A program made the position numbers and the translations under genes. Below are positions 1-53,049 of a stretch of DNA of 64,000 nt, one piece after another (position 1 is the first letter of the stretch; each line of letters begins with the position of its first letter). The notes below the pieces were generated by a model. That model made no database searches. It worked only from the letters and a program-made list of their open reading frames with translations, and was not told the origin of the DNA. Source of the DNA: Acidobacteriota bacterium (GTDB lineage Bacteria > Acidobacteriota > UBA6911 > JACQSX01); the NCBI GenBank assembly GCA_036507075.1, contig DASXQR010000010.1:26485-90484 (forward strand), read 5' to 3'.

Positions 1-130
1 GTTAACGAATAAACGATACTGAACGGAAACCAGCATCACAAACCGGCGGGCACCGGCGCTGGTTTTTGGGAACAGTTCCGTGCCACACACTGCAGAACCG
101 CGCGCGACAACAATCCTTAATTCGTTAGGC
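1..130 (-). repeat. attC-like recombination site (full length, ~130 bp) at the 3' end of the ParE/antitoxin cassette. Read on the minus strand it runs GCCTAACGAATTAAGG ... internal inverted repeats (AAACCAGCGCCGGT/ACCGGCGCTGGTTT) ... GTTAAC.
   Basis: RYYYAAC-type core (GCCTAAC) at one end and a GTTRRRY-like core at the other, with internal imperfect palindromes. The first 16 nt are identical to the truncated site at 3790-3812. It lies immediately downstream of a cassette ORF in the minus orientation. Confidence 0.5.
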
Positions 131-424
131 GTCTCGTCTCCTTCTCTTCCAACTGCGCGGGTCCCGAGCACAATGATAAAGGCCATACACGACTAATTCA
201 TTCCTCTCTATTTCATAGAAAACTTCATACGGAAACCGTCGGACCAGAGACCGTCGCATATGTCGGTGAACCATCGGGTATGCCTGGGGATATCGTTCAA
301 TACCCGCGATGCAGGTATCAACACAACGCAGGAATTCATCACCAAGTCCTCGGCCTCTCCGGTCGTACCAGTCGACGGCTCGGTCGAGGTCCTTTTCAGC
401 CTCAGGTGTAAGTCGCGCCTTCAC
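125..424 (-). CDS. Type II toxin, RelE/ParE family (ParE-like)
   Basis: 99-aa ORF with a typical ParE/RelE C-terminus (..RRFPYEVFYEIERNELVVYGLYHCARDP..). It overlaps the upstream antitoxin by 4 nt (ATGA). Confidence 0.85.
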   Translation of the reverse strand: MKARLTPEAEKDLDRAVDWYDRRGRGLGDEFLRCVDTCIAGIERYPQAYPMVHRHMRRSLVRRFPYEVFYEIERNELVVYGLYHCARDPRSWKRRRRDA

Positions 425-639
425 CTTCGGCGTTCAAGCCGCGCACGCACTTCTGACCAGGGCTTTGCTGCAGATGGGTCACGGCGATGTGCCCGCTTGC
501 GTCGATCCAGTTCTTTGCGCTGAGCTGCAGTTACAGGAATTAACTCGGGTTCGGCCAATATGCTGTCCCAAATCTCTTCAATCAACTGAATCCGCTCAGA
601 AACGCTCAATGCCAGGATGTCCTTGACCGATACACTCAT
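421..639 (-). CDS. Putative addiction-module antitoxin (TIGR02574-like component)
   Basis: ..LSVSERIQLIEEIWDSILAEPELIPVTAAQRKELDRRKRAHRRDP..PWSEVRARL matches the 'putative addiction module component' family. The start was trimmed to the internal Met (MSVSVKD); the ORF extends to 678. Confidence 0.7.
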   Translation of the reverse strand: MSVSVKDILALSVSERIQLIEEIWDSILAEPELIPVTAAQRKELDRRKRAHRRDPSAAKPWSEVRARLERRR

Positions 640-691
640 ATCGCCATTGTCCATCAGGAAACAAGATTCGACAAGCACGCTCTCTCGGTGC

Positions 692-780
692 GCCTAACGC
701 TTGGCATCAGCCGCGCGCCCCATTCAATGTTGCGATCCAATGCACCGGCGGTGGCGCGTCGGCATGCCGTTGGTCAGGCC
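692..780 (-). repeat. attC-like site, long class. On the plus strand: GCCTAAC ... GGCATCAGCCGCGCG ... GCGGTGGCGCGTCGGCATGCC ... GTTGGTCAGGC.
   Basis: Shares the conserved L''/L' arms GGCATCAGCCGCGCG / GCGGTGGCGCGTCGGCATGCC with the sites at 1498-1590, 6403-6493 and 7165-7249. Has RYYYAAC/GTTRRRY-like ends. Confidence 0.6.
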
Positions 781-859
781 TTTTTTTCCACCAAGCGTCC
801 CGAGACATACTTGTGCAGAAGGCTAGCGACAATGCCGCTCCCTGGAAAGGAGATACTGT

Positions 860-1306
860 ATGACACCGTTACGGCAACGGATGATTGAGGATATGCAGTG
901 CATCGACAACGACCAGGTCACCTTTCGTTATCGCGATAATCGCTGCCAACAGATGCGCTCAGTCAAGCTGCCGGCTGTCGAGTTTATTGGCCGCTTCCTG
1001 CAGCATGTACTGCCGCGCGGTTGTGCCAAGGTGCGCTACTACGGAATCTGCAGTCCTTCCTGCCGCAAGCAACTGGATCAGGCGCGCACTCTGCTAACGG
1101 TACCCATCGACCACTCCCAGTCCACTCCCATCGCGCCCTCCCCCGAGCCACCCGGAACCGCTCCACCGCTGTCCCCATTGCCACATCGGACAGTTCATCA
1201 TCATCGAGATGATCCGTCCGCAACGTATCTACCCTCCATGACATCGCCATTGAACCCATGCGCTCTATCCTGTTGGGTCTGCCATCCTGGGCCGCCATGC
1301 GAGTGA
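860..1306 (+). pseudogene. IS91-family (Y2/HUH rolling-circle) transposase C-terminal remnant. Homology is confined to roughly 860-1090.
   Basis: ..[47 protein letters not shown].. resembles the conserved C-terminal region of IS91/IS801 transposases (..[21 protein letters not shown]..). There is no N-terminal HUH domain, and the gene is in opposite orientation to the cassettes. Confidence 0.55.
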
Positions 1307-1467
1307 AGTACTCGATAAATGCTTCTTTTCCGTCAGCCACTGCTGGGTTGTGTTGAATGTAGACGCGCCCGACGTACTTCTCGATCGCCTCTGCAGGCTT
1401 CGGACTGGTTAAATATCAAGTCATAGAAGGCTTGCACGGCCTTTTTGTTTTGATCGAGGCTCCGCAT
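984..1467 (-). pseudogene. SnoaL/NTF2-like (ester-cyclase-like) cassette gene, frameshifted and 3'-truncated by the IS91 remnant
   Basis: The N-terminal piece ..[16 protein letters not shown].. (ORF 1333..1521) continues in another frame as ..[45 protein letters not shown].. (ORF 984..1340). The frameshift lies near 1390, and homology ends near 1210 where the IS91 fragment begins. Confidence 0.4.
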
Positions 1468-1497
1468 TGAGATTCTCCCAGATCCAGAGGGTGGCTC

Positions 1498-1590
1498 GTT
1501 AGGCGGCCTAACGGCAGGCATCAGCCGCGCGTCAGGAACTGTAGCAATCCAAGGAAACCGCGGTGGCGCGTCGGCATGCCGGGGTTAGCC
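1498..1590 (-). repeat. attC-like site, long class (GTTAGGC GG GCCTAAC ... GGCATCAGCCGCGCG ... GCGGTGGCGCGTCGGCATGCC ... GGTTAGCC)
   Basis: Same conserved arms as the sites at 692-780, 6403-6493 and 7165-7249. Both GCCTAAC and GTTAGCC cores are present. Confidence 0.6.
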
Positions 1591-1602
1591 TGCGTCGCCG
1601 AT

Positions 1603-1914
1603 TTATTCTCCTTGCCGCCACTTTGCGAAGTCACGAGCTCCGTGCACGAAAGCTAAGATCCGCACTTCGGTAGATGTAACTTCATAGATTAGTCGATAGC
1701 GCTGGATAAAAAGTTCACGAGTGTCGGAATTTCCAATTTCGGGAACCACCCTACCGCGTTCGCTGAAAGACGCTAGAGTAGCCGCCGTTGCCAGAGTCTG
1801 ATCGAGAAACTGCTCGGCAGCGATGGGAGAGTTCTGGGAGATATAACTGAGTACTTCGTCAAGCGCCGAGCGTGCCTCTCTTGACCAGATTACTTGGCGC
1901 TGCCGACTATCCAT
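1603..1914 (-). CDS. Type II toxin, RelE/ParE family (ParE-like)
   Basis: ..RQVIWSREARSALDEVLSYISQNSPIAAEQF..ERGRVVPEIGNSDTRELFIQRYRLIYEVTSTEVRILAFVHGARD.. shows the canonical ParE fold signature. It is overlapped by the upstream small antitoxin ORF. Confidence 0.85.
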   Translation of the reverse strand: MDSRQRQVIWSREARSALDEVLSYISQNSPIAAEQFLDQTLATAATLASFSERGRVVPEIGNSDTRELFIQRYRLIYEVTSTEVRILAFVHGARDFAKWRQGE

Positions 1915-2126
1915 TTCTTGCGCAGCTCTTCGACTACCTGCTCGTGTGGGATCGTGCGGCCGGCAGCTACGTCCTCTTGGCCCCGGTTCACAGCTTGAAT
2001 TACATAGAGGTGGTACAAAACGTCGTCTATGCTGCAGTCGTCAGGGAGTCGGTCCAGCAGGGCCTTGACAGTCTGTTTCGTTCGCAAGTTGTCCTCCGGT
2101 TCGTTCAAGTCGTTGGAGCTTATCAA
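1890..2126 (-). CDS. Putative antitoxin partner of the ParE-like toxin
   Basis: 78-aa ORF directly upstream of and overlapping the toxin, which is the typical antitoxin-toxin operon arrangement. Family not identified by eye. Confidence 0.55.
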   Translation of the reverse strand: MISSNDLNEPEDNLRTKQTVKALLDRLPDDCSIDDVLYHLYVIQAVNRGQEDVAAGRTIPHEQVVEELRKKWIVGSAK

Positions 2127-2170
2127 AATTATGACCCCATTATAAGCACTCGACCATGATCGCCCAAGCA

Positions 2171-2230
2171 GGCTAACGATTCTGGGTTTGAGCCGCGCGT
2201 TCTTTACGTCGGTTCCAAACCCGTGTTAAC
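2171..2230 (-). repeat. attC-like site, short class (~60 bp): GCTAACGATTCTGGGTTTGAGCCGCGCGTTCTTTACGTCGGTTCCAAACCCGTGTTAAC
   Basis: RYYYAAC / GTTRRRY-type ends (GCTAAC ... GTTAAC) with an internal inverted repeat GGGTTTG...CAAACCC. It sits between two cassettes. Confidence 0.45.
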
Positions 2231-2265
2231 CCGTCCAAGTCCACATTTCTGACCAGTACTGCATC

Positions 2266-2619
2266 TCACCCGCTGAACTCCGAAGCAGAGAGATAGGCTT
2301 CAGCAGTTTGTGACGCATGACGACGCACTCGATCAACCACGTCCGCGAGGCCCATCATGCCGCCGAGAACAAGATAGATATGCTCGTGATCCAACAGGAG
2401 AAGCGGGGTTCTTTCACCTGACGCCTCTTGTCGAGCTACCGCAGAGTATCCGGATATCGAAACCATGACGCCCATAGTATTGTCTGCTTTGGTGGTGACC
2501 TTTTTGTGGAATGTGTCAATATCGGTGGCGGCCGCTTGTTTCGCCGTGAACATCCATTCGATCAAATAAGTAGTACCGGACACAGTGAGAGAACCATCTA
2601 TCTGCGTTCCATTATGCAC
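2266..2619 (-). CDS. Stand-alone Mrr-cat-like (PD-(D/E)xK) restriction-endonuclease domain protein, probable fragment
   Basis: ..IDGSLTVSGTTYLIEWMFTAKQ...GVMVSISGYSAVARQEA.. resembles the Mrr/restriction-endonuclease catalytic domain (D...E.K). Only 117 aa with no N-terminal recognition domain. Confidence 0.4.
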   Translation of the reverse strand: MHNGTQIDGSLTVSGTTYLIEWMFTAKQAAATDIDTFHKKVTTKADNTMGVMVSISGYSAVARQEASGERTPLLLLDHEHIYLVLGGMMGLADVVDRVRRHASQTAEAYLSASEFSG

Positions 2620-2717
2620 ATAGGGTTTTCTGTTCGAATTTCGGAGAAATCGAGCAGATTACATTGATTTCACAATCCCGAATTGTGACAGGCATCTATC
2701 ATCCTATCCCATGGACC

Positions 2718-3763
2718 TCATCTCCGCGTCGCTGCCACCACGTCCCGAATCGCAGTAACCACGATGTCAGGCTGCGAGATCAGAATCTCATGGCCGCTGT
2801 GCCGGGCGATGACCTGCTTGCCGGCGCTCGATAGAGCCACCAACGCCGCCTGGTTTCTCTTGTGCTCATCTTCACTCACGCGGCCCTCCGGACCTTCATT
2901 TTCGGGAATCCCTCGCGACAGCACGATAAGCGGCATGTCGCCCAAGGGATGTTCCTTCTTGCCTTGCTGGGCGAGCATGGCCGCCAGCTCTTCACCTTCG
3001 AACGGGTTGTCATTGGTTGCCCAGTGCTTGATTTGCGAGAACGCCCATGCGCGCATGCGCTGGGCTTCGGCTGGAAGCTTGTTGCGTGGCGTGTCGTTCG
3101 CGTGCGGAGCCATCTGCCGGACAGCCGCTTCAATCTGACTTCGGATGTTCCCGGTAAGGTCGCTTTCGCGCAGTGGATCCGAGGTCTTGACCGCCGGGAT
3201 GGGTCTTCCAGTTGCGGTCTCCACCAAGCGGACCATGCGGCTATCTCTGAAGACCGCCACACCACTTTCATGGCCACTCTCCTCGAGTACCATGCCACCG
3301 ACCTCCGATGGATATGTGAAAGCGTAGAGGCGAGCCAATATGCCACCGTACGAGTGCCCCACAAGCACATAAGGAGGCCGAACGCCAGTCTTCTCGAGGA
3401 CGGCATGCACTCCCACACGACCTGGCGCAACGTTCGTGGGCGTGGACCCAGGTCGCTCCAACCGAGCCCGGCGCGATCGTACGAACACACGCGCGCGAAG
3501 CGGGCGACTTCTGGCTGGACGAGACTCCAATCCACCGAGAAACCACCGGCCCCGGCTTCGAGGATGACAGTCGGCTGTGACGCGCTGACCTGGCCCGTGC
3601 AATTGAGGTGGACTCGCCACCCGCCGAGATCTACTAGCTGGCCGGGCGCAGAAATGGGTGGCGAACTGGGTGGTGTCTGGGCTGTCGCCGGCATCGAAAC
3701 CCAGATGAGCAGAACGGCTGATATCGGCACCAGCAATCGACACCAAGCGAGCGTTTGTTGCAT
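2718..3763 (-). pseudogene. Secreted alpha/beta hydrolase, frameshifted
   Basis: The signal peptide and N-terminus (MQQTLAWCRLLVPISAVLLIWVSMPATAQ..GWRVHLNCTG..VILEAGAGGFSVDWS..) are in the frame of ORF 2876..3763. The catalytic part (..PYVLVGHSYGGILARLYA..) is in the frame of ORF 2718..3746. The shift is near 3430. Confidence 0.65.
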
Positions 3764-3785
3764 CTCACTCCCCTCTATCGAAACG

Positions 3786-3812
3786 ATGTCGCGGCCTTAA
3801 TTCGTTAGGCGT
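3786..3812 (-). repeat. Truncated attC-like site (GCCTAACGAATTAAGG...). It shares its first 16 nt with the full site at 1-130 but lacks the distal half.
   Basis: Exact 16-20 nt identity with the 114-133 region. It directly abuts the start codon of the hydrolase pseudogene. Confidence 0.4.
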
Positions 3813-4044
3813 CTCCACCGAACAGCTCTACAAGGAGACGTTCAGCTTCTTGAAGACCCTGTTCGGTGAACACAACTGATTTTGCCTTGCCGACAGGGTC
3901 TGAGATATATCCCTTTTCGTGAAGGCGCCTCATTGCATCCCAATCAAAGCCTTTCCACGCTCGATTATCTTCATGCAGCCCAAGAACGAGCAGCGCTAGA
4001 ACTGCACGATCGATCTTGTCTGTATTGAGTTTCATTTCTTTCAA
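3805..4044 (-). CDS. DUF6429-family small protein
   Basis: ..DKIDRAVLALLVLGLHEDNRAWKGFDWDAMRRLHEKGYISDPVGKAKSVVFTEQGLQEAERL.. matches the conserved pattern of DUF6429 proteins. Single-gene cassette. Confidence 0.65.
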   Translation of the reverse strand: MKEMKLNTDKIDRAVLALLVLGLHEDNRAWKGFDWDAMRRLHEKGYISDPVGKAKSVVFTEQGLQEAERLLVELFGGDA

Positions 4045-4056
4045 TAAATGCCAGAT

Positions 4057-4120
4057 GCCTAACGCTCGCGGTCAGCCGCGGTGGGTGCGCTCGAGTGCGA
4101 CTTCGCTGCTATCCCCCCGT
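4057..4120 (-). repeat. Degenerate attC-like site (GCCTAACGCTCGCGGTCAGCCGCGGTGGGTGCGCTCGAG...)
   Basis: RYYYAAC core followed by imperfect palindromic arms related to the long class. No clear GTTRRRY end. Confidence 0.3.
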
Positions 4121-4507
4121 CCCACTGGCGGCTGCACCGCGTCCTTGGGCGGCAGCCAAGCCTTGCTGCGGAACCAATCGCCTATTGACCACATATTGCA
4201 AGTAGAAGATTCCAAAGAAGAACACCGCCATTACAGATAGGGGGGTCTGAGCCTGAATGCTCCTCAGCGGGCTCTGGGGATCCTGAATCCTCCTCAAATG
4301 GGACAAGTGAGACTCCAGAATACGGCTCACCTTGAAGCATTGTACGATCAAGGTGATCCCTGCAGTGAGTTGCAACAGTTTTGTTACAAGGTTGACGGAT
4401 TGAGAGGCGTCAACCTCGCCAGCGCCCTCAAGAGCGCCTAAAAGCCAGTAAAGAATAAGGTTAATGCTGAGTATAACTATCGCGAACACGAATGGCCCAA
4501 CTCCCAC
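4109..4507 (-). CDS. Hypothetical small membrane protein (2-3 predicted TM helices)
   Basis: ORF with hydrophobic N- and C-terminal segments. It is co-cassetted downstream of the zinc-ribbon protein, and its 3' end runs into the attC-like site. Confidence 0.4.
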   Translation of the reverse strand: MGVGPFVFAIVILSINLILYWLLGALEGAGEVDASQSVNLVTKLLQLTAGITLIVQCFKVSRILESHLSHLRRIQDPQSPLRSIQAQTPLSVMAVFFFGIFYLQYVVNRRLVPQQGLAAAQGRGAAASGTGG

Positions 4508-4567
4508 CTTCTCCTTCGCTTGGAGACTGTTGAATGCCCCACGTCGCGACAGGAACCAACAGGGATA

Positions 4568-4771
4568 CTAAATGCTGGCCGTGATGATGACGAGCAAAAT
4601 GGTCAACAGGATACTCTGTCTCCTTAGCGTCGGCGATTCCGTGTCAGTATTTGGGCCGGCGTGTGGTGCAAGTGGAGTGCTGTTATGAAGGGCTGTACCG
4701 CACTGCCCACAGTATTTCGTGCCGTCCTGGAGGCTGGCTCCGCAATGTGTGCAGTACATAGGTTCCTCCAA
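4568..4771 (-). CDS. Zinc-ribbon domain protein with C-terminal transmembrane anchor
   Basis: CTHCG..(x10)..CGQCG double CxxC zinc-ribbon at the N-terminus and a hydrophobic tail (ILLTILLVIITASI). Confidence 0.55.
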   Translation of the reverse strand: MEEPMYCTHCGASLQDGTKYCGQCGTALHNSTPLAPHAGPNTDTESPTLRRQSILLTILLVIITASI

Positions 4772-4835
4772 CGATAGATTTCAGGCGTCCGATCGGCATC
4801 AGCGGCGCGGTTTGCCGTCTGCTGCATGCGTCAGG
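4768..4835 (-). repeat. Short hairpin repeat (GGCATCAGCGGCGCGGTTTGCCGTC). Second copy of the attC-related short class also seen at 7690-7735.
   Basis: ~30 nt near-identical to 7699-7730. The palindromic core resembles the GGCATCAGCCGCGCG arm of the long attC class. Confidence 0.3.
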
Positions 4836-4869
4836 CAGCACCCGATCGTGTGGTCGGAGGGTAGTATAT

Positions 4870-5459
4870 CTCAACATTCTGACTGGCAATGTCGAGCGGC
4901 CCGAACAGGTTCTCAGCTACCGCTTTCGAAGTGTGAATGAGTTCGTCATAGGTGAGAATGCGCAGCCTTGGAATCTGACCCTGGAGCGTGACGGCTTCCA
5001 GCGATCATCGGCCGAAAGAGCCGCAGACCTGCCGATTACTATTAGTTAGCGATCTGGGATTGGCGGAGATGCCGGCCAGCCCGAGTTCTTGTTGCACGCT
5101 GGGAAGGTTGTCCTCAATGAAAATGCGCCAGTCGATAATCTGATTGATTGCGTGAGTCAATTCCTCCCGGCTAGAAGGTCGGTTTCGGCCCACAGTGGGG
5201 CGAATTCAAGCTTCCAGTAGTCGCTTTGGAATTTGGGGTACACTTCGAGGGCTTGCCAGCCAACCTGCAGCTTGATAGCGCCTTTCGCGAGAAACTCGCG
5301 AGTTCGGTCAATGTTCCCGGCGGGGTCTGCAGGCACGATGATTCCCGACATGACGAGTTGCAGCTCGTTAGTGCAAGACACCAAGCAGGGAGGCCGAATC
5401 GGAGGAGGTGGAATGGAAATGCTTGGATCAAAATCGAGACTGGCCATGATTACCAGCAT
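4870..5459 (-). pseudogene. Decayed cassette ORF of unknown function, split over three frames
   Basis: Consecutive minus-strand ORF pieces 5157..5459, 5005..5193 and ~4870..5000 each have plausible protein-like composition but are interrupted by frameshifts and stops. Confidence 0.25.
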
Positions 5460-5844
5460 AATTGTCCGCTACGACCTCGGCACCGAGGGCGCTACCAAGA
5501 TTCGAGCGGCGGCGATCGACTCCGGCTTGACAGAACTGGCTCCGAAGTTCTCGAGCCTCTACATACATCGCCGTTTTGCGTGCTCTAAGTTCTTGCGGCA
5601 GACGTTTCACGAACATGCAGAACAATCCATCAGCCAGTCCACTTGGGCACGAGCCTTCTATCAACTGCAAAAAGCAGAGGCAAGGGCTATCATGCAGCCG
5701 TTCGGGCGTTCGCTTTTAAATGGATCCGGATTATTTTTCACTGCTGGAAAGACAGCACCCTTTACAACGAGGAGCAGTACCTGCAGGCACTGCGTCGCAG
5801 AAACTCACCGCTGGTCCCGCTGCGGCAGGCGAGTGCTTAACTAA
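5440..5844 (+). pseudogene. IS110-family transposase C-terminal remnant, frameshifted
   Basis: The C-terminal ORF 5643..5840 (..KGYHAAVRAFAFKWIRIIFHCWKDSTLYNEEQYLQALRRRNSPL..) matches the conserved IS110-family transposase C-terminus. The upstream piece (..KIRAAAIDSGLTELAP..) is in another frame. No DEDD N-terminal domain. Confidence 0.55.
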
Positions 5845-5893
5845 AAAAACTATTGACTAAAACACCTCAGATGTCTGGATGCAATTGTTAGGC
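5834..5893 (-). repeat. attC-like site, short AT-rich class (GCTTAAC ... GTTAGGC)
   Basis: RYYYAAC and GTTRRRY cores spaced ~60 bp apart, at a cassette boundary. Confidence 0.35.
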
Positions 5894-6334
5894 GCGTCGT
5901 GAATATAGCATCCGGCCCCGTTCGCTGAACGTGAACCAGGTCAAATAGATCCCCAATAGCAAGCCACCAGGAAGATAGTAAACCTGTGCAGAACAAATAT
6001 AGAACAGGAGCGATGATTGCCATTCTAGATCGGCAATTGGGACTCGGCTGCTGTAAGTTTTAAGCTGCTTAAGTAGAGCAAGCGTCTGTAAGAATGGCAG
6101 CGCGATTCCAGCCCACCTAACCCAGCCCTTGCGGCGCAGCAAGCCGCTGCCAATGACCAGCATGGGAAGAGGCGATGTAAACGCAATGACAAAGATCAGT
6201 AGTAAGGGTGTCTCGCCGCTTGCACCCTGGGAGTTCACCAATACCACAAAGAAGAGAAATAACCCAGCCAACAGACTGTAAACAAGGTAGCACTTGGCCA
6301 GTAGATTGTTATGCCAAATAGTATTACGGTTCAT
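5888..6334 (-). CDS. Hypothetical integral membrane protein (~4 TM helices), low GC
   Basis: 148-aa ORF with hydrophobic helices. Its GC (~45%) is well below the window average, as expected for a cassette gene. Confidence 0.5.
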   Translation of the reverse strand: MNRNTIWHNNLLAKCYLVYSLLAGLFLFFVVLVNSQGASGETPLLLIFVIAFTSPLPMLVIGSGLLRRKGWVRWAGIALPFLQTLALLKQLKTYSSRVPIADLEWQSSLLFYICSAQVYYLPGGLLLGIYLTWFTFSERGRMLYSRRA

Positions 6335-6402
6335 TTCAACACCGCCTCTTTTCCAGATCTCAGGATTAACTACTGTGCGTCAGGATATTGGTTAACAGAA
6401 GC

Positions 6403-6493
6403 GTCTAACGCCGAGGCATCAGCCGCGCGCCAGGAAAATCTGTCAGTCCAAGGGAATCGCGGTGGCGCGTCGGCTGCATGCCCGTGGTTAGCT
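6403..6493 (-). repeat. attC-like site, long class (GTCTAAC ... GGCATCAGCCGCGCGCC ... GCGGTGGCGCGTCGGCTGCATGCC ... GTTAGCT). Read on the minus strand, R' = GTTAGAC.
   Basis: Conserved arms shared with 692-780, 1498-1590 and 7165-7249. On the cassette coding strand it is a canonical R''(xGCTAAC)...R'(GTTAGAC) arrangement downstream of the DUF2442 gene. Confidence 0.6.
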
Positions 6494-6513
6494 GGCGTCT
6501 CACTAGGCACGTC

Positions 6514-6810
6514 TCATGCCTGTACTAAATCCCATCTTCGAGCACGGGCGGTCAACGCTTCGACAAATTGCGGCCAGTCGTGTAACGTGGCTGGATCAAA
6601 GTCGGCGCCACTGGGCCAAACCAATGTGTGAACCTCAGGATCAATCCGAACCTGATTGAAGAGCGACAAGTCACGCAACGGTTTGTATAGCTCGCCTGCC
6701 AAAACCGGCTCCAAGTTGATCGTCTGCTCGGTATTGTCATCGAATTGGACACGCACCGTGTAGGGCGCCACGATTTCAAACGACTCGACACGATAGATTG
6801 GGTGAATCAT
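6514..6810 (-). CDS. DUF2442 domain protein
   Basis: ..YRVESFEIVAPYTVRVQFDDNTEQTINLEPVL..LRDLSLFNQVRIDPEVHTLVWPSGADFDPATLHDW.. is the typical DUF2442 pattern. Paired with DUF4160. Confidence 0.8.
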   Translation of the reverse strand: MIHPIYRVESFEIVAPYTVRVQFDDNTEQTINLEPVLAGELYKPLRDLSLFNQVRIDPEVHTLVWPSGADFDPATLHDWPQFVEALTARARRWDLVQA

Positions 6811-6820
6811 TGCTTATCCG

Positions 6821-7090
6821 TTATTTGAGCGGGTCGATCGGTAAGGGCTTCCGGCCCACTTGCAACCTTTGCCAATCGGTGACTAATTCCGATTGGTGTA
6901 ACTCCGCCCAAGCCTCAACTAAGCGTTGTTGCCGTTTGGGCAGTGAACCAGCGATCAACTCGATTGGATCAATGCTATAGATCCCCACACCCTCCTGATA
7001 GTACGCGTGAAAATGTGGTCTATGGTGTGGCGTCTCTGCCTCCGCATACATGCGAATAATGATACCGAAAAACCGGCTGATTTCTGGCAT
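6821..7090 (-). CDS. DUF4160 domain protein
   Basis: MPEISRFFGIIIRMYAEAETPHHRPHFHAYYQE.. is the canonical DUF4160 N-terminus. It lies immediately upstream of the DUF2442 gene, a known two-gene module. Confidence 0.8.
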   Translation of the reverse strand: MPEISRFFGIIIRMYAEAETPHHRPHFHAYYQEGVGIYSIDPIELIAGSLPKRQQRLVEAWAELHQSELVTDWQRLQVGRKPLPIDPLK

Positions 7091-7164
7091 GCACGCATCT
7101 TATTGTTCAATGAAACGGCGAGAAACGCACTGGAAATCAATTGCCCGCCCAGGGACCGTGAGCC

Positions 7165-7249
7165 AGCTAACGCTCAGGCCCGCGCGCCAGGAAATCTATC
7201 AATCCCAGGGAATCGCGGTGGCGCGGCGGCTGCATGCCGGGGGTTAGGC
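7165..7249 (-). repeat. attC-like site, long class (AGCTAAC ... GCGGTGGCGCGGCGGCTGCATGCC ... GTTAGGC)
   Basis: The conserved right arm and both core motifs are present. The left arm is degenerate (CTCAGGCCCGCGCGCC instead of GGCATCAGCCGCGCG). Confidence 0.6.
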
Positions 7250-7313
7250 GGTACAGCTGTCGAACAATCCCGGGCGTGATCAGCACGACATAAGAGCCAA
7301 TCCGCCGTTCTGG

Positions 7314-7613
7314 TTAGGGTGTGTTAGTCCTTTGAATCCGAGTCAATCTCATGGACTTTGAAAACTCCAACATATAAATGGGCTCTCCGGTCTTCAGATT
7401 GCTTGTTTCAACGCCAGCTGGGGAAAAGACGACGAAGAGACCGTCACTATCGGGCGTGCTACTGTAGGCATCGTGTGGAACTGTTTCCTGGAAACTCTTG
7501 AAAGTCATACCCAACTGCAATGTCCTCCCGACCCATCGCTGTACGCGCCGGCGATGCTTGTAGAGAACGTAGATGCCCCGCATCCCACGCGGAAGAGCGT
7601 TAACGTTCTCCAT
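7314..7613 (-). CDS. Hypothetical cassette protein with a weak GIY-YIG-like N-terminal motif
   Basis: 99-aa ORF. ..RGIYVLYKHRRRVQRWVGRT.. is reminiscent of the GIY..(x9-11)..YIG motif. No further confirmation is possible by eye. Confidence 0.3.
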   Translation of the reverse strand: MENVNALPRGMRGIYVLYKHRRRVQRWVGRTLQLGMTFKSFQETVPHDAYSSTPDSDGLFVVFSPAGVETSNLKTGEPIYMLEFSKSMRLTRIQRTNTP

Positions 7614-7689
7614 TGGAACGAATTCTTCACGGCGCTTGAGCCGAAGTGGACTTATGATCGCTTTGATTTTCTCAGCAACCTCTCAGAGC

Positions 7690-7735
7690 CGCCCAACGCC
7701 CGGCATCAGCGGCGGCGCGGTTTGCCGTCCGGGAT
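7690..7735 (-). repeat. Short hairpin repeat (GCCCAACGCCCGGCATCAGCGGCGGCGCGGTTTGCCGTCCGGG), attC-related short class
   Basis: RYYYAAC core plus a palindrome CCCGG...CCGGG. ~30 nt shared with 4775-4810. Confidence 0.3.
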
Positions 7736-7885
7736 TGAAGAGCTGCACAGATATCGGGCAAGCACACGGTGACGTGGAGAAGGCACCAGTACGCTTTGCC
7801 AGCACGACATCGGTTCATGTCTTCCCAGTAGATAGTAAAGGCGGAAGACAGCGTTCCTTTCTGCAACATCTAGTTCCTCAGCGCC

Positions 7886-8035
7886 GCCTAACTTTAAGTA
7901 AATGTCGCAAATTATAAGGCTATTACGCCGTGTAATCAACGTGGGACCCACAGTTCCAGTTGCAATCTATGAACGGATGCGGATAGATATACGGCGTGTG
8001 AAATTTTTTGGTGCCAGGCCTGGCGACGAAGTTTC
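7886..8035 (-). promoter_or_regulatory. Putative attI / integron promoter region. Core GTTAGGC (minus strand, 7892-7886) sits at the first cassette boundary, and the AT-rich segment contains candidate -35/-10 hexamers (TTGCAA ...18 nt... TAGATA) facing the intI remnant.
   Basis: Position between the intI remnant and the first attC-bounded cassette. The GTTRRRY core is oriented as expected for attI. Confidence 0.35.
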
Positions 8036-8038
8036 TCT

Positions 8039-8254
8039 GTGCCTGAACTGCTGGAGCAGGCGCGCGATTTGATCCGCGTCAAACATTACAGTGTCGGGAC
8101 CGATCAGGCGTACCTGCGATGGATCAGAGAATTCATAACGGTGCAGGAATTACTGGGGCACAAAGACGTCAGCACGACGATGATTTACACCCATGTTCTA
8201 AATAGAGGAGGGCATGGGGTTCGCAGTCCAATCGACTTAATTTCAAAGCTGTGA
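8039..8254 (+). pseudogene. intI: Integron integrase (IntI, tyrosine recombinase) remnant. An in-frame internal deletion leaves N-terminal ~33 aa fused to C-terminal ~38 aa.
   Basis: [30 protein letters not shown] aligns with the IntI1 N-terminus ([33 protein letters not shown]). [35 protein letters not shown] aligns with the IntI1 C-terminus ([35 protein letters not shown]). The RHR/box I-II region and the integron-specific insertion are missing. Confidence 0.85.
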
Positions 8255-8264
8255 TCCAAACATC

Positions 8265-9980
8265 ATGTCCGGGGAGATTTCAATGAAGAAGTATTACCGC
8301 CTGCTTGGCTTCCTGCTTGCATTTCCTGCCGTATTGGGCTTTCTTGGCGCGCCGGAGAAGAAGGTTTATCCCTATCGCTGGGTGCGCGTCAGCAGCGGGC
8401 TGAGAGACGATGCGGAAGTCGAGCGCGTCCGCAAGATTGTCCAGGCGGCCTCCGGGCACGGGCTGAACGGGATCGCGCTTTCGGCGGGCCTGGATCAGCT
8501 CGATATGAAGCAGCCCGAATATTTTCGACGACTGGAGCAAGTGCGGCAGATATGCGCCGAGGCCAAAGTCGACGTCATTCCGTCGTTCATGTCGGCCGGA
8601 TACGGCGGAGCCGTCCTGGCACACGACAAGAACCTGGCCGCCGGGCTTCCGGTGCGCGACGCGCTGTTCGTTGTTCATGAAGGCAAGGCCGATTTTGCCG
8701 CCGATCCGGCGGTGAATCTTGAAAACGGCGGTTTTGAAGGGACAAAAGAGGGGCTGCCCATGTCATGGCGTGTGGCCCAGCCCGGGACCGCCTCGATTGA
8801 TACGGCTGTTTTTCATGAAGGCAAATCCTCACTGCGATTCCACAATCTGGAAGATCCAAGACAGCCGGCGCGCGTCAGCCAGACGGCGCGGGTCCGCCCC
8901 CACCGCTGCTACCGGGTCAGCTTCTGGATCCGCACCGAAAGCCTCGGCGCGTCGGATCCTTTCGGCTCGGGCAACGTCCAGCTCGATGTGCTGGGAGGCG
9001 AGGAGAAACGCCCGCTTCAGTACGAAAATCCGCGTTTTCCCAACGACGATCAGTGGCACCGCGTCGCAGTCGGATTCAACAGTTGGGGATATGACAGGGC
9101 CGACATCTCGCCGAAAGTCCGGGGCAGCAAAGGCGGCACAGTCTGGATAGACGATTTGCGAGTCGAAGAAGCCGGCCTGGTTAATCTGCTGCGCCGCGCA
9201 GGGACTCCGCTCGTGGTCCGCGGCGAATCGAACAGCACCGTGTATGAAGAGGGGCGCGATTTTGCGCCGGTGTCTGACCAACGGCTGAATTTCCGATACG
9301 ACCATGACGGGCCATCCATTCAGATTCTCCCGGGCAGCCGCATCGTGGAAGGAGAGCGCCTGCGCGTCAGTTTTTTCCACGGAACAAACATTTACAACGG
9401 CCAGACTCCGGTATGCATGTCCGAGCCCAGGCTGTACGAAATCTGGCGCACCCAGGCGCGCCTGGTACATCAGGCGCTCGCGCCGGGAAAGTACCTTCTC
9501 AATATGGATGAGATCCGTACCGGAGGATCGTGCGAGGCGTGCAAAAAGCGAGGCGCGACGATGGGCCAGATCCTGGGCGACTGCCTCACAAAACAGGTCA
9601 ATCTGCTGCGGGAAGTGAATCCGAAAGCGGAGATTTTTGTCTGGTCGGACATGCTCGATCCCAATCACAACGCCAATCCAAACAAGAAGTACTATTACCT
9701 GGCGGAAGGGATTTTCACCGATTCATGGAAGCATGTCCCCAAAGACTTGAACATCGTCTGCTGGTATTACGAGAAACGGGCCGAGAGCCTGCGACATTTC
9801 TCGAACCTCGGCTTTCGCACCGTTGCGGGCGCGTATTACGACGCCGATAATCTCGACAACCCGCGCGGCTGGCTCGAATCGCTCGACGCGACTCCCGGAG
9901 CGGCGGGAATCATGTATACCACCTGGTTGAACAAATACGATCTGCTGCCCGGGTTTGGCGATCTTGTTTCGGGCCGCTGA
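8265..9980 (+). CDS. Secreted hypothetical protein with a central CBM4/9-like carbohydrate-binding module, possibly a glycoside-hydrolase-like protein
   Basis: Signal peptide (KKYYRLLGFLLAFPAVLG). The central ..NLENGGFEG...WIDDLRVEE.. block resembles CBM4_9. Coding-like codon usage over 571 aa. Confidence 0.55.
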   Translation: MSGEISMKKYYRLLGFLLAFPAVLGFLGAPEKKVYPYRWVRVSSGLRDDAEVERVRKIVQAASGHGLNGIALSAGLDQLDMKQPEYFRRLEQVRQICAEAKVDVIPSFMSAGYGGAVLAHDKNLAAGLPVRDALFVVHEGKADFAADPAVNLENGGFEGTKEGLPMSWRVAQPGTASIDTAVFHEGKSSLRFHNLEDPRQPARVSQTARVRPHRCYRVSFWIRTESLGASDPFGSGNVQLDVLGGEEKRPLQYENPRFPNDDQWHRVAVGFNSWGYDRADISPKVRGSKGGTVWIDDLRVEEAGLVNLLRRAGTPLVVRGESNSTVYEEGRDFAPVSDQRLNFRYDHDGPSIQILPGSRIVEGERLRVSFFHGTNIYNGQTPVCMSEPRLYEIWRTQARLVHQALAPGKYLLNMDEIRTGGSCEACKKRGATMGQILGDCLTKQVNLLREVNPKAEIFVWSDMLDPNHNANPNKKYYYLAEGIFTDSWKHVPKDLNIVCWYYEKRAESLRHFSNLGFRTVAGAYYDADNLDNPRGWLESLDATPGAAGIMYTTWLNKYDLLPGFGDLVSGR

Positions 9981-10270
9981 TTTGCGCGGAATTGCGCGGA
10001 TTGATATCGGCCGCCGATTTACGCGGAATTGCGCGGATTGATATCGGCCGCCGATTTGCGCGGACTGCGCGGATTGATATCGGCCGCCGATTTACGCGGA
10101 ATTGCGCGGATTGATATTGGCCGCCGATTTGCGCGGACTGCGCGGATTGATATCGGCCGCTGATTTGCGCGGACTGCGCGGATTGATATCGGCCGCCGAT
10201 TTACGCGGAATTGCGCGGATTGATATCGGCCGCGGATTTGCGCGAAATGCGCGGATTGACATCAGGCCGC
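9979..10270. repeat. Tandem repeat, about 8 units of 36-37 bp (GATTTRCGCGGAMTTGCGCGGATTGATATCGGCCGCC), each unit containing the palindrome ATCGGCCGCCGAT
   Basis: Strict head-to-tail periodicity between the stop of the upstream gene and glyA. Alternating unit variants (TACGCGGAATTG / TGCGCGGACTG). Confidence 0.9.
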
Positions 10271-10313: not shown

Positions 10314-11600
10314 TTGGAGAATTTGATGACGCATCTAAAGCGGACTTTAGAACAGATTGACCCGCAAGTGGCCGAGGCCATTGCCAATGAAGCGCGCCGG
10401 CAACACACGCATCTGGAATTGATCGCCTCAGAGAATTTCGTCTCCGAGGCGGTGCTGCAGGCGATGGGCTCTGTGTTCACAAACAAGTACGCCGAAGGAT
10501 TGCCGGGTAAGCGTTATTACGGAGGATGCGAATTCACCGACATTGTCGAGTCGCTGGCGATCGAGCGCGCAAAGCGGCTCTTCGGCGCCGATCACGCCAA
10601 CGTTCAGGCGCATGCGGGAAGCCAGGCCAATATGGCGGTATATCTTGCGGCCCTGCAGCCGGGCGACAAGGTGCTGGGAATGAATTTGTCGCACGGCGGC
10701 CACCTCACTCACGGCCACCCCCTGAACTTCTCCGGAAAAATGTTCCAGATTGTTCCCTACGGCGTCAGCCGCGAGACCGAAACGATTGATTACGAAGCGC
10801 TGCAGCTTCTGGCCGAACGGGAAAAACCTAAGATGATCATCACCGGCGCCAGCGCTTACTCAAGGACCATCGATTTCAAAAGAGTGGGCGAGATCGCCCG
10901 CTCGGCAGGCGCCGTTCACATGTCCGATATCGCTCATATCGCGGGACTGGTAGCAACCGGCCTGCATCCCAGTCCGATACCGCACGCCGAGTTTGTCACC
11001 ACCACCACGCATAAGACGCTGCGCGGTCCCCGCGGAGGCCTGGTCCTGTGCCAGGCATCTCGCGCCAAGGAACTCGATAAAGTAGTATTTCCCGGAATTC
11101 AAGGCGGCCCGCTGGTTCACATTATTGCCGCCAAGGCGGTCTGCCTTCAGGAAGCTCTGCAGCCTGAGTTCAAGACCTATCAGCAGCAAGTGATGCGAAA
11201 CGCGGCTACCCTGGCCCGCGTCGTCGCTTCCCGGGGATTCCGGATTGTTTCCGGAGGCACGGACAATCACCTGCTGTTGGTGGATGTGTTCGCGCGTGGA
11301 ATCACGGGCAAACAGGCGGAAGAAACTTTGGAGCACGCCAATATTACGGTCAACAAGAACACCATTCCTTTTGAAACAAATTCGCCTTTTGTGGCCAGCG
11401 GGATTCGAATCGGATCACCGGCGCTCACGACCCGAGGAATGAAGGAAGCTGAGATGGAGCTGATCGGCGAGTGGATCGCCTATGTGCTGGAGGATATTCA
11501 GGACGAGGCGCGGCAGCGAAGGGTGAAGGAAAAAGTACTGCAGCTTACCGACCGTTTTCCGCTGTATCTCTCGCGCCAGCAGGTGGTCGGTAAGATATAG
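10314..11600 (+). CDS. glyA: Serine hydroxymethyltransferase
   Basis: ..[61 protein letters not shown].. are diagnostic SHMT motifs, including the PLP-binding lysine region. Confidence 0.97.
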
Positions 11601-11616
11601 CTTTTCCTTTGTGTTC

Positions 11617-11662
11617 TTTGTGTCTTTGTGGTGAATCAATTTCTCACCACAAAGACACAAAG
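11617..11662. repeat. Perfect 19-bp stem hairpin (CTTTGTGTCTTTGTGGTGA ...9 nt... TCACCACAAAGACACAAAG). Member of the 'CACAAAG' palindromic repeat family and a possible terminator of glyA.
   Basis: Exact inverted repeat in the glyA-dinG intergenic region. Related motifs recur at 24225-24379, 28407-28527, 45690-45725 and 63130-63270. Confidence 0.55.
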
Positions 11663-11681
11663 GGCACAAAAGATATTACAC

Positions 11682-22223: not shown

Positions 22224-22229
22224 AAAGTT

Positions 22230-22722
22230 TGCGAGTTGCGGGTTTGCGGGTTGCGGGTTTGCGCGTTGCGGGTTTGCGCGTTTGCGGGTTTGCGCGTTGC
22301 GGGTTTGCGCGTTTGCGCGTTTGCGGGTTTGCGGGTTGCGGGTTGCGGGTTTGCGGGTTACCGGGTTGCGGGTTTGCGCGTTTGCGGATTTGCGGGTTTG
22401 CGGGTTACCGGGTTGCGGGTTTGCGCGTTGCGGGTTTGCGCGTTGCGGGTTTACGGGTTGCGAGTTTGTGGGTTGCGGGGTTTGCGGGCTCAAACGATTC
22501 AGAGCCAGTCGCCGGTTGAAAAGCAGAGATTAAAAATTATTAAAAATTAAAAATTCCGAAAATTTCGAATTTTCAATTTTGAACCCGAACCTAAAGCGAA
22601 ACCCGAAACCTCATAATCCGGAAACCCACAACGTGGAACCCGTAACCCGTAAACTCGTAACCCGGAAACCCATAACCCGTAGACCTGGAACCCGTAACCC
22701 GGAAACCCGTAACTTGTAACTC
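22230..22722. repeat. ~490-bp inverted microsatellite: (GCGGGTT/GCGCGTT)n over ~270 bp, an AT-rich loop, then the complementary (AACCCGY/AACCCGTA)n array
   Basis: Heptamer periodicity is directly visible. The second half is the reverse complement of the first, giving a giant potential hairpin between the metal-binding-protein gene and the permease gene. Confidence 0.9.
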
Positions 22723-28406: not shown

Positions 28407-28527
28407 ATCACCACAAAGACACAGCCCGGCCGCTGGCTGCAACCAAAAAGCCGTCGACGTGCACGTGAGCCTCCTCGGCTTTTTCTTTGGTTGCGGCCTA
28501 CGGCCGGGCTGTGCCTCTGTGGTGAAA
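28407..28527. repeat. Dispersed palindromic repeat family B, complete hairpin copy (CACCACAAAGACACAGCCCGGCCG..GCAACCAAAAAGCCGTCGACGTGCACGTGAGCCTCCTCGGCTTTTTCTTTGGTTGCGGC..CGGGCTGTGCCTCTGTGGTGA)
   Basis: Left and right halves are reverse complements. The right half is ~85-90% identical to 15680-15750 and 47560-47635. Confidence 0.7.
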
Positions 28528-50303: not shown

Positions 50304-50452
50304 CGAATGGGGAATGCGGAATGCGGAATGGGGAATGCGGAATGTGGAATGAGGAATGAGGAATGAGAAGTGGTTTGCTCCAAGTTGTGAAGAGATAACT
50401 TGAAGTTATTCCGTATTCCGCATTCCCAATTCCGCATTTCGCATCCCCATTT
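50304..50452. repeat. Inverted microsatellite: (GAATGSG)n x ~9, loop, (CSCATTC)n
   Basis: GAATGGGGAATGCGGAATGCGGAATGGGGAATGCGGAATGTGGAATGAGGAATGAGGAATGAG ... TTCCGTATTCCGCATTCCCAATTCCGCATTTCGCATCCCCATT. The halves are reverse complements. Confidence 0.85.
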
Positions 50453-50756: not shown

Positions 50757-51045
50757 CCGTGGTCGGTTGTCAGTTGTTACAGGTTTTCCGGTTGCGGGTT
50801 TTCGGGTTACGAGTTTTCACGTAGGGCGCGTTCGATGGTTACGTGATGTTTGTGGGTTTCAAATCCTGCCAAAGCATCGAATCTGACATCTTTGGATCCG
50901 CCATTTTCAATCGAACCGAATCCGCAACCGGTGACCCGAAAACCCGTAACCTGAACACTCGTAACTCGAAATCTCGTAACCCGAAAACCCGCAACTCGAA
51001 AACCCGCAACCCGAAAACCTGTAACAACTGACCACGGACAACGGA
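50757..51045. repeat. Inverted microsatellite related to 22230-22722: (GGTTTTCGG/GGGTTACGA)n, unique ~130-bp loop, (CGAAAACCCGYAAC)n, flanked by GTTGTCCGTGG-family motifs
   Basis: The repeat arms are reverse complements. The flanks (CCGTGGTCGGTTGTCAGTTGTTACAG / CTGTAACAACTGACCACGGACAACGGAC) are also inverted copies. Confidence 0.85.
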
Positions 51046-52839: not shown

Positions 52840-53049
52840 CGTATTCGAAGGGGAACGAAGCCGGACTATACCAGTGGAATTTCGAATTCAAAATTGAAAA
52901 ATTATCAAAGTTAAAGTTTCGTACTTTGGTGGTCAAAGAATTTGAAACCGGCTGAGAGCGATAGGGTAGGGAGAGCCGCTAGGCTCCCCCACCCCTTCGA
53001 ACCGGACGAGCGGATTTCCCGCATCCGACTCTCCAGTTGATAGGTCACC

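Follow-up and report, generated by a model that had tools for sequence, protein, structure and literature searches.

Chromosomal integrons with a disabled integrase gene (intI) are known from Xanthomonas, in which intI has commonly been inactivated by deletions, frameshifts or stop codons, and the arrays of gene cassettes have then been stable (Gillings et al. 2005, via PMC12444791). Among the clusters of attC sites lacking integron-integrases (CALINs) surveyed by Cury et al. (2016, PMC4889954), 15 of 279 had an intI pseudogene nearby, and the loss of intI was proposed as one origin of such clusters. In the Acidobacteria, 120 attC sites were modelled by Ghaly, Tetu and Gillings (2021, PMC8352920), with a model sensitivity of 30%. 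This work concerns a 64-kb stretch of DNA assigned to an Acidobacteriota bacterium (assembly GCA_036507075.1, contig DASXQR010000010.1, positions 26,485 to 90,484; hereafter the window), in which a remnant of intI adjoins an array of small cassettes separated by attC sites. The locus is very probably the fossil of a chromosomal integron of an uncultured soil Acidobacteriota bacterium, and its operational class is that of a CALIN with an adjacent intI pseudogene. An initial annotation of this DNA had considered such platforms to be little described outside Proteobacteria, a view outdated by the existing models of Acidobacteria attC sites (PMC8352920) and the CALINs already described with intI pseudogenes (PMC4889954). 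Hence the locus is a further case of a system already in the literature, and leaves the understanding of integrons unchanged.

The locus resembles the Xanthomonas integrons in being a disabled chromosomal platform with a stable, slowly eroding array, in which the functions of the cassettes are mostly unassigned, but differs in its phylum, its family of attC sites, and the clean in-frame fusion of its intI termini. With the Vibrio cholerae superintegron it shares a homogeneous, lineage-specific attC family, with a loop conserved as in the V. cholerae repeats (VCRs); like both that superintegron and other sedentary integrons, it is chromosomal, and contains toxin-antitoxin cassettes and many unassigned open reading frames (ORFs). 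Unlike the superintegron, it comprises ~14 sites in ~9.7 kb, mixes attC sub-families, and has a dead intI. Sedentary integrons have been defined by more than 19 attC sites, or by presence in 100% of a species' genomes (PMC4889954). The initial annotation assigned the locus to this type, and its chromosomal context (glyA, and a gene for a DinG-like helicase) and homogeneous attC family do fit; yet the site count, ~14 even with the extension of the array on another contig, falls short of the threshold. Rather, the 11 sites and remnants within 8 kb correspond to a CALIN, which requires at least two attC sites less than 4 kb apart and no functional intI, and the locus has no complete integron, as defined by an intI with the IntI-specific insertion near patch III (intI_Cterm).

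The integrase remnant

The remnant of intI lies at the right-hand end of the array:

8039-8254, plus strand: intI remnant, in which IntI residues ~14-46 are joined in frame to ~297-329 (numbered as in an IntI of 330 amino acids)

This ORF of 71 amino acids retains ~33 N-terminal and 38 C-terminal residues of an integron integrase, with ~250 codons, or three quarters of the gene, gone. Its Pfam matches are to Phage_int_SAM_4 (profile positions 1-32 of 85) and Phage_integrase (149-169 of 172). The best match in NCBIfam is to the integron integrase model TIGR02249, which scores 75 bits over two stretches, the C-terminal one covering positions 281-313 of 315, against 28-31 bits for the XerC and XerD models (31 for XerC). 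The best relative of solved structure is VchIntIA (2a3v), the integron integrase of V. cholerae. The expectation that this ORF would match IntI profiles was therefore borne out, and its IntI ancestry is demonstrated. The catalytic tyrosine motif (IYTHV) and LLGH are retained, whereas the catalytic Arg, Lys and His-x-x-Arg residues are missing, as is the IntI-specific insertion. No further pieces of intI were found in any frame of the window, or of a near-identical 15.8-kb metagenome contig (L024). The remnant is best read as an intI gene after a single, clean, in-frame internal deletion of ~250 codons. As this removed nearly the whole catalytic domain, the remnant is unable to encode an active recombinase, and the platform is no longer capable of recombination by itself. 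The pseudogene also differs from those previously reported beside CALINs in lacking the intI_Cterm region used for pseudogene detection (PMC4889954), and hence the screen of Cury et al. would probably miss it.

Searching public metagenomes with the remnant returned more than 200 distinct short proteins (57-230 amino acids) in which N- and C-terminal parts of IntI are joined in frame. Their junctions fall at positions 27-249 on the N-terminal side (mostly 27-100) and 107-309 on the C-terminal side, with a few at short motifs, IRT and THL, that are present in each half. The abundance of such fusions, the intact reading frame, and the calling of the ORF as a gene in metagenomes could indicate that the product of 71 residues has been kept for a function, for instance in DNA binding or regulation, and is more than a relic. 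This is scarcely credible, given that most of both domains and most of the catalytic residues are gone, and that the scatter of the junctions fits independent deletions, with no conserved architecture. Hence these proteins more probably represent many independent deletions, of a kind which the query itself selects for, and not a conserved “mini-IntI”. Internal collapse of intI looks like a common route of decay, with the caveat that the search favours such ORFs.

The attC sites

The first 8.25 kb of the window consist of small ORFs, nearly all on the minus strand, with a GC content of 52-59%, which is moderate, and not that of the high-GC lineage that had been suggested. ORFs and attC sites alternate, with cassette ORFs and attC top strands on the minus strand, and intI divergent from them on the plus strand. 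The central proposal of the initial annotation, an inactivated intI divergent from a co-oriented array of small ORFs separated by attC sites in a chromosomal setting, is thereby upheld. The sites are as follows, with scores from the covariance model described below:

1-130, minus strand: candidate attC A, an 8-bp terminal inverted repeat (TAACGAAT/ATTCGTTA) around an internal hairpin; low confidence
690-782, minus strand: attC B, long family, GCCTAAC ... GTCAGGC with one substitution in the R'' box; 80 bits
1504-1593, minus strand: attC C, long family, GCCTAAC...GTTAGCC; 93 bits
2169-2234, minus strand: attC D, a distinct 60-nt type, GGCTAAC...GTTAACC; fold z = -1.75; 17.5 bits
3795-3815, minus strand: attC E remnant, the R'' end only, 21 nt identical to 115-135, with the remainder of the site missing
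4055-4153, minus strand: attC F, a divergent long type, GCCTAAC ... CTTGGGC; 24 bits, E 4e-4
4782-4843, minus strand: attC G, short sub-family, stem kept and both R boxes mutated (GGCGTCC ... GTCAGGC); 19 bits
5875-5893, minus strand: attC H remnant, CT GGATGCAATTGTTAGGC, the 19-nt R''/L'' end of a long-family site
6401-6496, minus strand: attC I, the best-preserved long-family site, GTCTAAC...GTTAGCT; 99.5 bits
7163-7252, minus strand: attC J, long family, AGCTAAC...GTTAGGC, L box shortened by 5 nt; 81 bits
7689-7738, minus strand: attC K, short sub-family, R' box GCCCAAC and 5' arm kept, R''/L'' half deleted; 11.9 bits

The claim of at least 11 attC sites therefore holds for sites and remnants together, although only five to six are structurally intact (B, C, D, I and J among them), and A, E, F, G, H and K are classed as degenerate, truncated, poorly folding or interrupted. 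A stretch previously counted among the sites (5834-5893) is instead the end of an insertion sequence (IS); as a 60-nt attC it was rejected, as its GCTTAAC lies within the stop region of a transposase and the stretch does not fold. Candidate A folds no better than shuffled sequence, and the window begins at the R' end of this site. Site D forms a clean hairpin with one bulge on the plus-strand 3' arm, and site F overlaps the 3' end of the ORF upstream. Site I still has its R box, spacer and L box, as well as two bulged single bases on the plus-strand 3' arm (DNA fold z = -3.4).

Four sites of ~90 nt (690-782, 1504-1593, 6401-6496 and 7163-7252) form one tight, co-oriented family. Their consensus structure is a 5-bp terminal stem (CTAAC/GTTAG), a spacer of 4-5 nt on each side, and a GGCAT/ATGCC L box, inward of which are a 12-bp GC-rich stem and a conserved loop of ~30 nt. 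Allowing up to two mismatches, GGCATCAGCCGCGCG occurs four times in positions 1-8000, always on the plus strand, where 0.34 copies are expected by chance; the sole match elsewhere in the window, with two mismatches, is inside glyA. All four copies of CGCGGTGGCGCGTCGGC are likewise on the plus strand within the array. Hence the near-identical arms that were said to be shared between sites are real and, apart from the glyA match, restricted to the array. The same 8 kb holds seven of the nine occurrences of CTAACG and nine of the 13 of GTTAG[GC]. The proposed RYYYAAC/GTTRRRY ends fared less well: the strict pair fits one position in the region, the spurious 5834-5893, and what the sites conserve is CTAAC...GTTAG. 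Together with another site, at 10419-10481 of L024, sites B, C, D, I and J have the R boxes, spacer, L box, one-sided bulges and length (57-141 bp) expected of attC; they are 60-95 nt long, and follow the strict RYYYAAC/GTTRRRY letters in part only.

Two further observations concern the ends of the sites. An identical 21-nt sequence, CCTTAATTCGTTAGGCGTCTC, is present at 115-135 and 3795-3815, where it comprises the last three codons (..D-A-stop) of the genes for ParE and a DUF6429 protein and an R'' box. As it spans codons of two unrelated cassette genes as well as the R'' box, attC reaches into coding sequence. At 1498-1512, a lone R-box-like heptamer stands back to back with the R' box of attC C (GTTAGGC-G-GCCTAAC), forming a 15-nt near-palindrome.

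A covariance model was built from the four window sites and four homologues from other genomes. It gave the four strong sites 80-99 bits on the plus strand and 16-29 bits on the minus strand, with weaker matches at 4055-4153 (24 bits), 4782-4843 (19), 2169-2234 (17.5) and 7689-7738 (12). Nothing exceeded 18.5 bits in the other 56 kb of the window, where the top match was at 28422-28512 (18.5 bits). In an alignment of 15 family sites from six loci, 90.8% of cells formed standard pairs and seven pairs had compensatory changes; none of 500 shuffles reached these values, and sliding the pairing partner by 1-3 columns lowered pairing to 22-50%. The initial annotation had suggested an attC model as a check, for which the profile hidden Markov model part of the published Acidobacteria model (PMC8352920, Supplementary Data 1) was run over the whole window with nhmmer: its five best matches fell on sites I, B, C, F and K, in each case on the minus strand, and thus on the array and the predicted strand, with weak scores. 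The published model and the sites described here come from the same phylum, and have in common R boxes of the form GCCUAAC / GUUAGGC, a spacer, L box, stem and loop, and bulges on the R''/L'' side. They differ in the L-box and stem consensus, which is GUUgAAGCgGA... in the model and GGCATCAGCCGCGCG here. The weak scores, and the sensitivity reported for that model, imply that the attC family at this locus is another sub-family.

The polarity of the array is evident from the bulges. Every member of the family has two unpaired single bases on the plus-strand 3' arm, six pairs apart. The extrahelical bases of attC belong to the R''/L'' side, and so to the 3' half of the bottom strand that undergoes recombination, as in the structure of VchIntIA with a VCR; the side is reportedly given by Bouvier et al. 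2009. Therefore the plus strand is the bottom strand, and the cassettes are read on the minus strand. This agrees with the strand of the ORFs, the strand of the published-model matches, and the divergent intI. Stop codons are found 13-65 nt before attC, or within the R'' box (125-127, 3805-3807 and 5888-5890), and the next ORF begins 13-75 nt past the R' box.

Several points weigh against identification of the locus as an integron. Firstly, the remnant of intI scores far under the cut-off of TIGR02249 (75 against 265 bits) and, with the IntI-specific insertion deleted, lacks the defining feature of IntI. Secondly, the training set of the covariance model included four sites from the window, for which the model is circular. 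Thirdly, the published Acidobacteria model gives weak scores (at most 12.2 bits, best E 0.012), its L-box consensus being different. Fourthly, folding of 15 sites separately, another check that had been suggested, was a partial success, as two clearly exceed shuffled controls (z -3.4 and -4.9) but the others do not. Fifthly, the repeats are confined to the array over 64 kb plus 6 kb of the genome, a span that leaves room for genome-wide dispersal. Finally, no intact intI was found beside this attC family in any of the fetched loci, and all of the contigs bearing the array are near-identical (99.8-100%), so neither gain nor loss of cassettes was observed.

Such points might favour generic palindromes, akin to repetitive extragenic palindromic (REP) sequences or bacterial interspersed mosaic elements, or terminators, with the recombinase fragment beside them by coincidence. 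GC-rich imperfect palindromes at the 3' ends of ORFs, most of which fold no better than shuffled sequence, would fit this, as would the weak covariance-model matches to other palindromes of the window (such as 28422-28512), and the ~70 kb of genome covered. Against it, the family motifs are missing from the other 56 kb of the window, an outcome that the initial annotation had set as a check on dispersed repeats, and the copies within the array share a single orientation. The CTAAC/GTTAG ends, spacer, L box and one-sided bulges are the architecture of attC; stop codons fall within R'' boxes; the fragment next door is specifically IntI-like; relatives of the repeats form arrays in other genomes, ~0.9 kb apart; and a published attC model matches the repeats on the expected strand. 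Coincidental palindromes are therefore highly improbable, and a decayed integron is the preferred reading.

Extent, relatives and host of the array

The first 9476 bases of the window are 99.98% identical to L024, a JGI metagenome contig. Two Logan contigs assembled from SRA runs match the window at 100% identity, over 868-10014 and 6454-7977. The suspicion that the array runs past the start of the window is confirmed by L024, which extends 6.3 kb further and has three more attC sites within 1.8 kb; that at 10419-10481 is a textbook 60-nt attC (DNA fold z = -4.9). Beyond the window there are two to four more small cassettes, followed by unrelated genes in the minus orientation from ~1.8 kb. 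The whole array, in the window and L024 combined, spans ~9.7 kb with ~14 attC sites.

An exact-pattern scan of genomes, using one genome per species, found 21 loci, of which four were true members of the attC family, with the loop included; all four were on contigs of metagenome-assembled genomes (MAGs) of Acidobacteriota, and none had an intI. On a contig from a Vicinamibacterales MAG (L001, 2028-4698, minus strand), at least four sites of the same family are spaced ~0.9 kb apart, and hence the family occurs in arrays of other Acidobacteriota. In metagenomes, a pattern allowing GCGGTGGCGCGGCGGC was swamped by chance matches in GC-rich coding DNA, with three of the 120 returned stretches being true family members, from soil or sediment contigs.

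The guess that the host is an acidobacterium proved correct: an identical cassette protein is labelled by NCBI as Acidobacteriota bacterium, and homologues of the 571-residue protein encoded beside the array, at 64-70% identity, carry Acidobacteriota labels. On long contigs, the closest homologues have other neighbours, such as an arginine-biosynthesis operon, and no integron. It follows that the site of insertion is not conserved, and that the platform is not ancient there. Homologues of the DUF4160 cassette protein (79-84% identical) occur in differing contexts, one being beside housekeeping genes, and another ending a series of short ORFs that share one orientation, among which is a single weak attC-like site; this is no more than suggestive of cassette mobility. 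A cassette-like array of small ORFs in a common orientation is seen on an ENA contig (L156, 828-6221, plus strand), with one weak attC-like site, GCCCAAC...GTTGGGC, and a DUF4160/DUF2442 pair 82% identical to that of the window.

An IS110-type element within attC

A group of IS1111 elements that insert in attC sites (IS1111-attC; ISPst6, ISKpn4 and others) is said to have been described by Tetu and Holmes in 2008, and by Post and Hall in 2009. At this locus, attC H is interrupted by a related type of element:

5545-5874, plus strand: IS110-family remnant, the last ~95-110 transposase codons (frameshifted) and the right end ...CCTCAGATGT

The ORF fragments at 5545-5840 on the plus strand correspond to the C-terminal quarter of an IS110-family transposase. 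The remainder of attC H was split off by this insertion, and then lost. Positions 5553-5882 are 88.5% identical to the end of a metagenome contig (L054, Ga0070697_100174555), on which, within 1-1820, the element is intact, encoding a transposase of 425 amino acids with PF01548 and PF02371 domains. It is inserted within an attC of the same family, at the same position as the window copy, with CT on both sides (...GGCGCGTCGG CT, the element, CT GCATGCC...).

The intact copy has a long non-coding region of ~250 nt (252-502) upstream of its transposase gene, tnp, compared with ~35 nt after the stop codon. The upstream region folds into two stem-loops (RNA fold z = -5.25), in which four candidate guides can be read in this order: GCGCGTCGG, an exact match to the left target flank; CATGCAG, complementary to CT and the right target flank; CCTCAGATGTC, matching the right end of the element; and CTATAAG, complementary to CT and the left end of the element. 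Each pair of guides flanks a small hairpin, and none of 20000 shuffles reached these joint matches. The two-loop arrangement of the non-coding RNA is that seen in IS110 bridge RNAs (PMC11208160), and on L054 it is accompanied by the other characteristics of that system: a DEDD transposase, guides and a CT core. The window copy is without the upstream non-coding region. In IS1111 elements, by contrast, the guide RNA (seekRNA) is downstream of the transposase gene (PMC11187229). Their organisation also includes inverted repeats in subterminal position. Hence the element shares with IS1111-attC its insertion in attC, at a fixed position and orientation in one arm, its DEDD transposase and apparent RNA-guided choice of target, but on L054 it lacks the downstream non-coding organisation of that group, having instead an upstream region with two guide-bearing loops, as in IS110 and IS621.

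To judge from its sequence, the L054 element apparently carries a bridge RNA with guides matching attC. The attC-targeting IS110-type element is nevertheless a lead, consisting of two insertions, with the RNA region read in L054 only. The chances are about even that this attC family is the programmed target of an IS110-type element using a bridge RNA, which would constitute a second RNA-guided lineage parasitising attC sites, independent of IS1111-attC.

Cassette contents and the proximal region

The contents of the array, in order of position, are:

125-678, minus strand: toxin-antitoxin cassette, Unstab_antitox antitoxin (421-678) and ParE toxin (125-424), with the stop codon within the R'' box
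860-1306, plus strand: IS91-family transposase remnant, profile positions 253-324 of 356
860-1521, no strand assigned: decayed cassette, minus-strand ORF fragments (1333-1521 and 984-1340) overlapping the plus-strand IS91-family remnant
1603-2126, minus strand: toxin-antitoxin cassette, ParE toxin (1603-1914) and a 78-residue upstream partner (1890-2126)
2266-2619, minus strand: ORF of 117 amino acids, with a weak Mrr-type nuclease-like match (E 0.014, below cut-off)
2718-3763, minus strand: alpha/beta-hydrolase gene, signal-peptide-like N-terminus, frameshift near 3420
3805-4044, minus strand: cassette ORF, DUF6429, with the stop codon within the R'' box
4109-4771, minus strand: cassette with a zinc-ribbon protein (4568-4771) and a predicted membrane protein of 132 amino acids (4109-4507), with no attC between them
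4844-5544, minus strand: decayed cassette region, in which two ORF fragments (5157-5459 and 5005-5193) overlap, neither matching a family
5888-6334, minus strand: cassette ORF of 148 amino acids, predicted membrane protein, with the stop codon within the R'' box
6514-7090, minus strand: two-gene cassette, DUF4160 (DhiT-like toxin, 6821-7090) and DUF2442 (6514-6810)
7314-7613, minus strand: cassette ORF of 99 amino acids with no family match
7697-7890, minus strand: truncated first “cassette”, a truncated ORF only
7886-7892, minus strand: putative crossover core of attI, GTTAGGC, at a distance of 147 nt from the start codon of intI, placed by position alone
7911-7939, minus strand: candidate cassette promoter (Pc), TTGATT, 17-nt spacer, TATAAT, 10 of 12 matches, pointing into the array

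Hence the cassettes encode two ParE-type pairs, a DUF4160/DUF2442 pair, a DUF6429 protein, a zinc-ribbon protein and two predicted membrane proteins, alongside several ORFs without a family. There is no attC between the 117-residue ORF at 2266-2619 and the hydrolase gene. With the two frames of the latter joined, its Pfam match covers profile positions 2-191 and scores 53 bits, compared with 59-191 and 38 bits beforehand. The suggestion of a SnoaL-like protein at 984-1521 was not confirmed, there being no Pfam matches in this region. The first 13 residues of the IS91-family remnant resemble the beginning of an integrase-type protein.

Decay of the array is plain from the frameshifted hydrolase, the remnants of IS91 and IS110 elements, the deleted halves of attC sites, and the mutated R boxes. 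The candidate Pc lies between the intI start and the putative attI core, and both have the place and orientation expected of them. The Pc was the one sigma-70-like site found where 0.6 were expected by chance, making this a weak prediction.

Proposed history of the locus

These features are those of an integron platform, the ancestral form of which would have comprised intI on the plus strand, a short intI-attI spacer, probably with a leftward Pc, and promoterless minus-strand cassettes, each ending in attC. IntI would have inserted and excised cassettes, building the array by recombining attI with attC, or one attC with another, in the form of folded bottom strands (the plus strand of the window), while a promoter within the spacer would have driven the proximal cassettes. 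The in-frame deletion of ~250 codons of intI would then have frozen the array, leaving a CALIN beside an intI pseudogene. Later erosion has deleted attC halves, mutated R boxes and frameshifted the hydrolase gene, and admitted IS91- and IS110-type elements that were inserted and then truncated. Toxin-antitoxin cassettes have been proposed to stabilise other chromosomal integrons, and the three at this locus may have had such a role, plausibly by slowing large deletions.

Alternatively, a functional IntI could still mobilise the array in trans, from a gene at another place in the genome or on an incoming element, and the array would then be a working satellite and not a fossil. About half of CALINs have an IntI encoded elsewhere on their replicon (Cury et al. 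2016, PMC4889954), five to six of the sites at this locus keep intact R and L boxes, and the attC family recurs between genomes of Acidobacteriota at 80-97% identity, which points to a shared pool of cassettes. Nevertheless, a second intI is absent from the 64-kb window and the 15.8-kb contig, decay is widespread (truncated attC sites, frameshifts and dead IS copies), and the near-identical copies from three samples exhibit no differences in their cassettes. Mobilisation in trans is therefore unlikely, and a frozen array remains the preferred account.

Other features of the window

Outside the array, a tandem repeat at 9972-10270, between the gene for the 571-residue protein and glyA, consists of 8.2 copies of a 37-nt unit, GGCCGCCGATTTGCGCGGAATTGCGCGGATTGATATC (90% matches). 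Between glyA and the gene for the DinG-like helicase, a near-perfect inverted repeat of ~60 nt (11609-11668, TTTGTGTCTTTGTGGTGAATCAATTTCTCACCACAAAGACACAAA) yields mirror-image spurious ORFs on both strands. Long intergenic runs of 7-8-nt units occupy 22227-22488, 22597-22720, 50305-50449 and 50776-51025; these include 34 copies of GTTTGCGG followed by AACCCGT-type units, 8.7 copies of GAATGCG followed by an inverted copy, and 6.7 copies of AACCCGTAACCCGAA. At 52961-53033 on the minus strand, there is an Rfam match to group II intron domain V/VI (42.5 bits, against a gathering score of 40), in a stretch of low GC content (47-50%) between a lactate permease gene and an unassigned ORF of 378 amino acids; no reverse-transcriptase ORF was found near this match. 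Rfam, which has no attC family, gave no matches in positions 1-9000 at E <=1.

Implications

This locus is a well-delimited instance of integron decay outside Proteobacteria, combining a clean in-frame collapse of intI with a highly conserved and distinct attC sub-family, which the published Acidobacteria model scarcely detects, and with cassettes whose functions are mostly unassigned. Screens that rely on intI_Cterm would miss such remnants, and the arrays beside them would be labelled as orphan CALINs. The practical value of the locus is modest: attC models for soil metagenomes could be improved with the new family. Most deserving of follow-up is the IS110-type element that targets attC: if this attC family is indeed its programmed target, then such elements would erode arrays after the loss of IntI, and would mark attC sites where attC models perform poorly.

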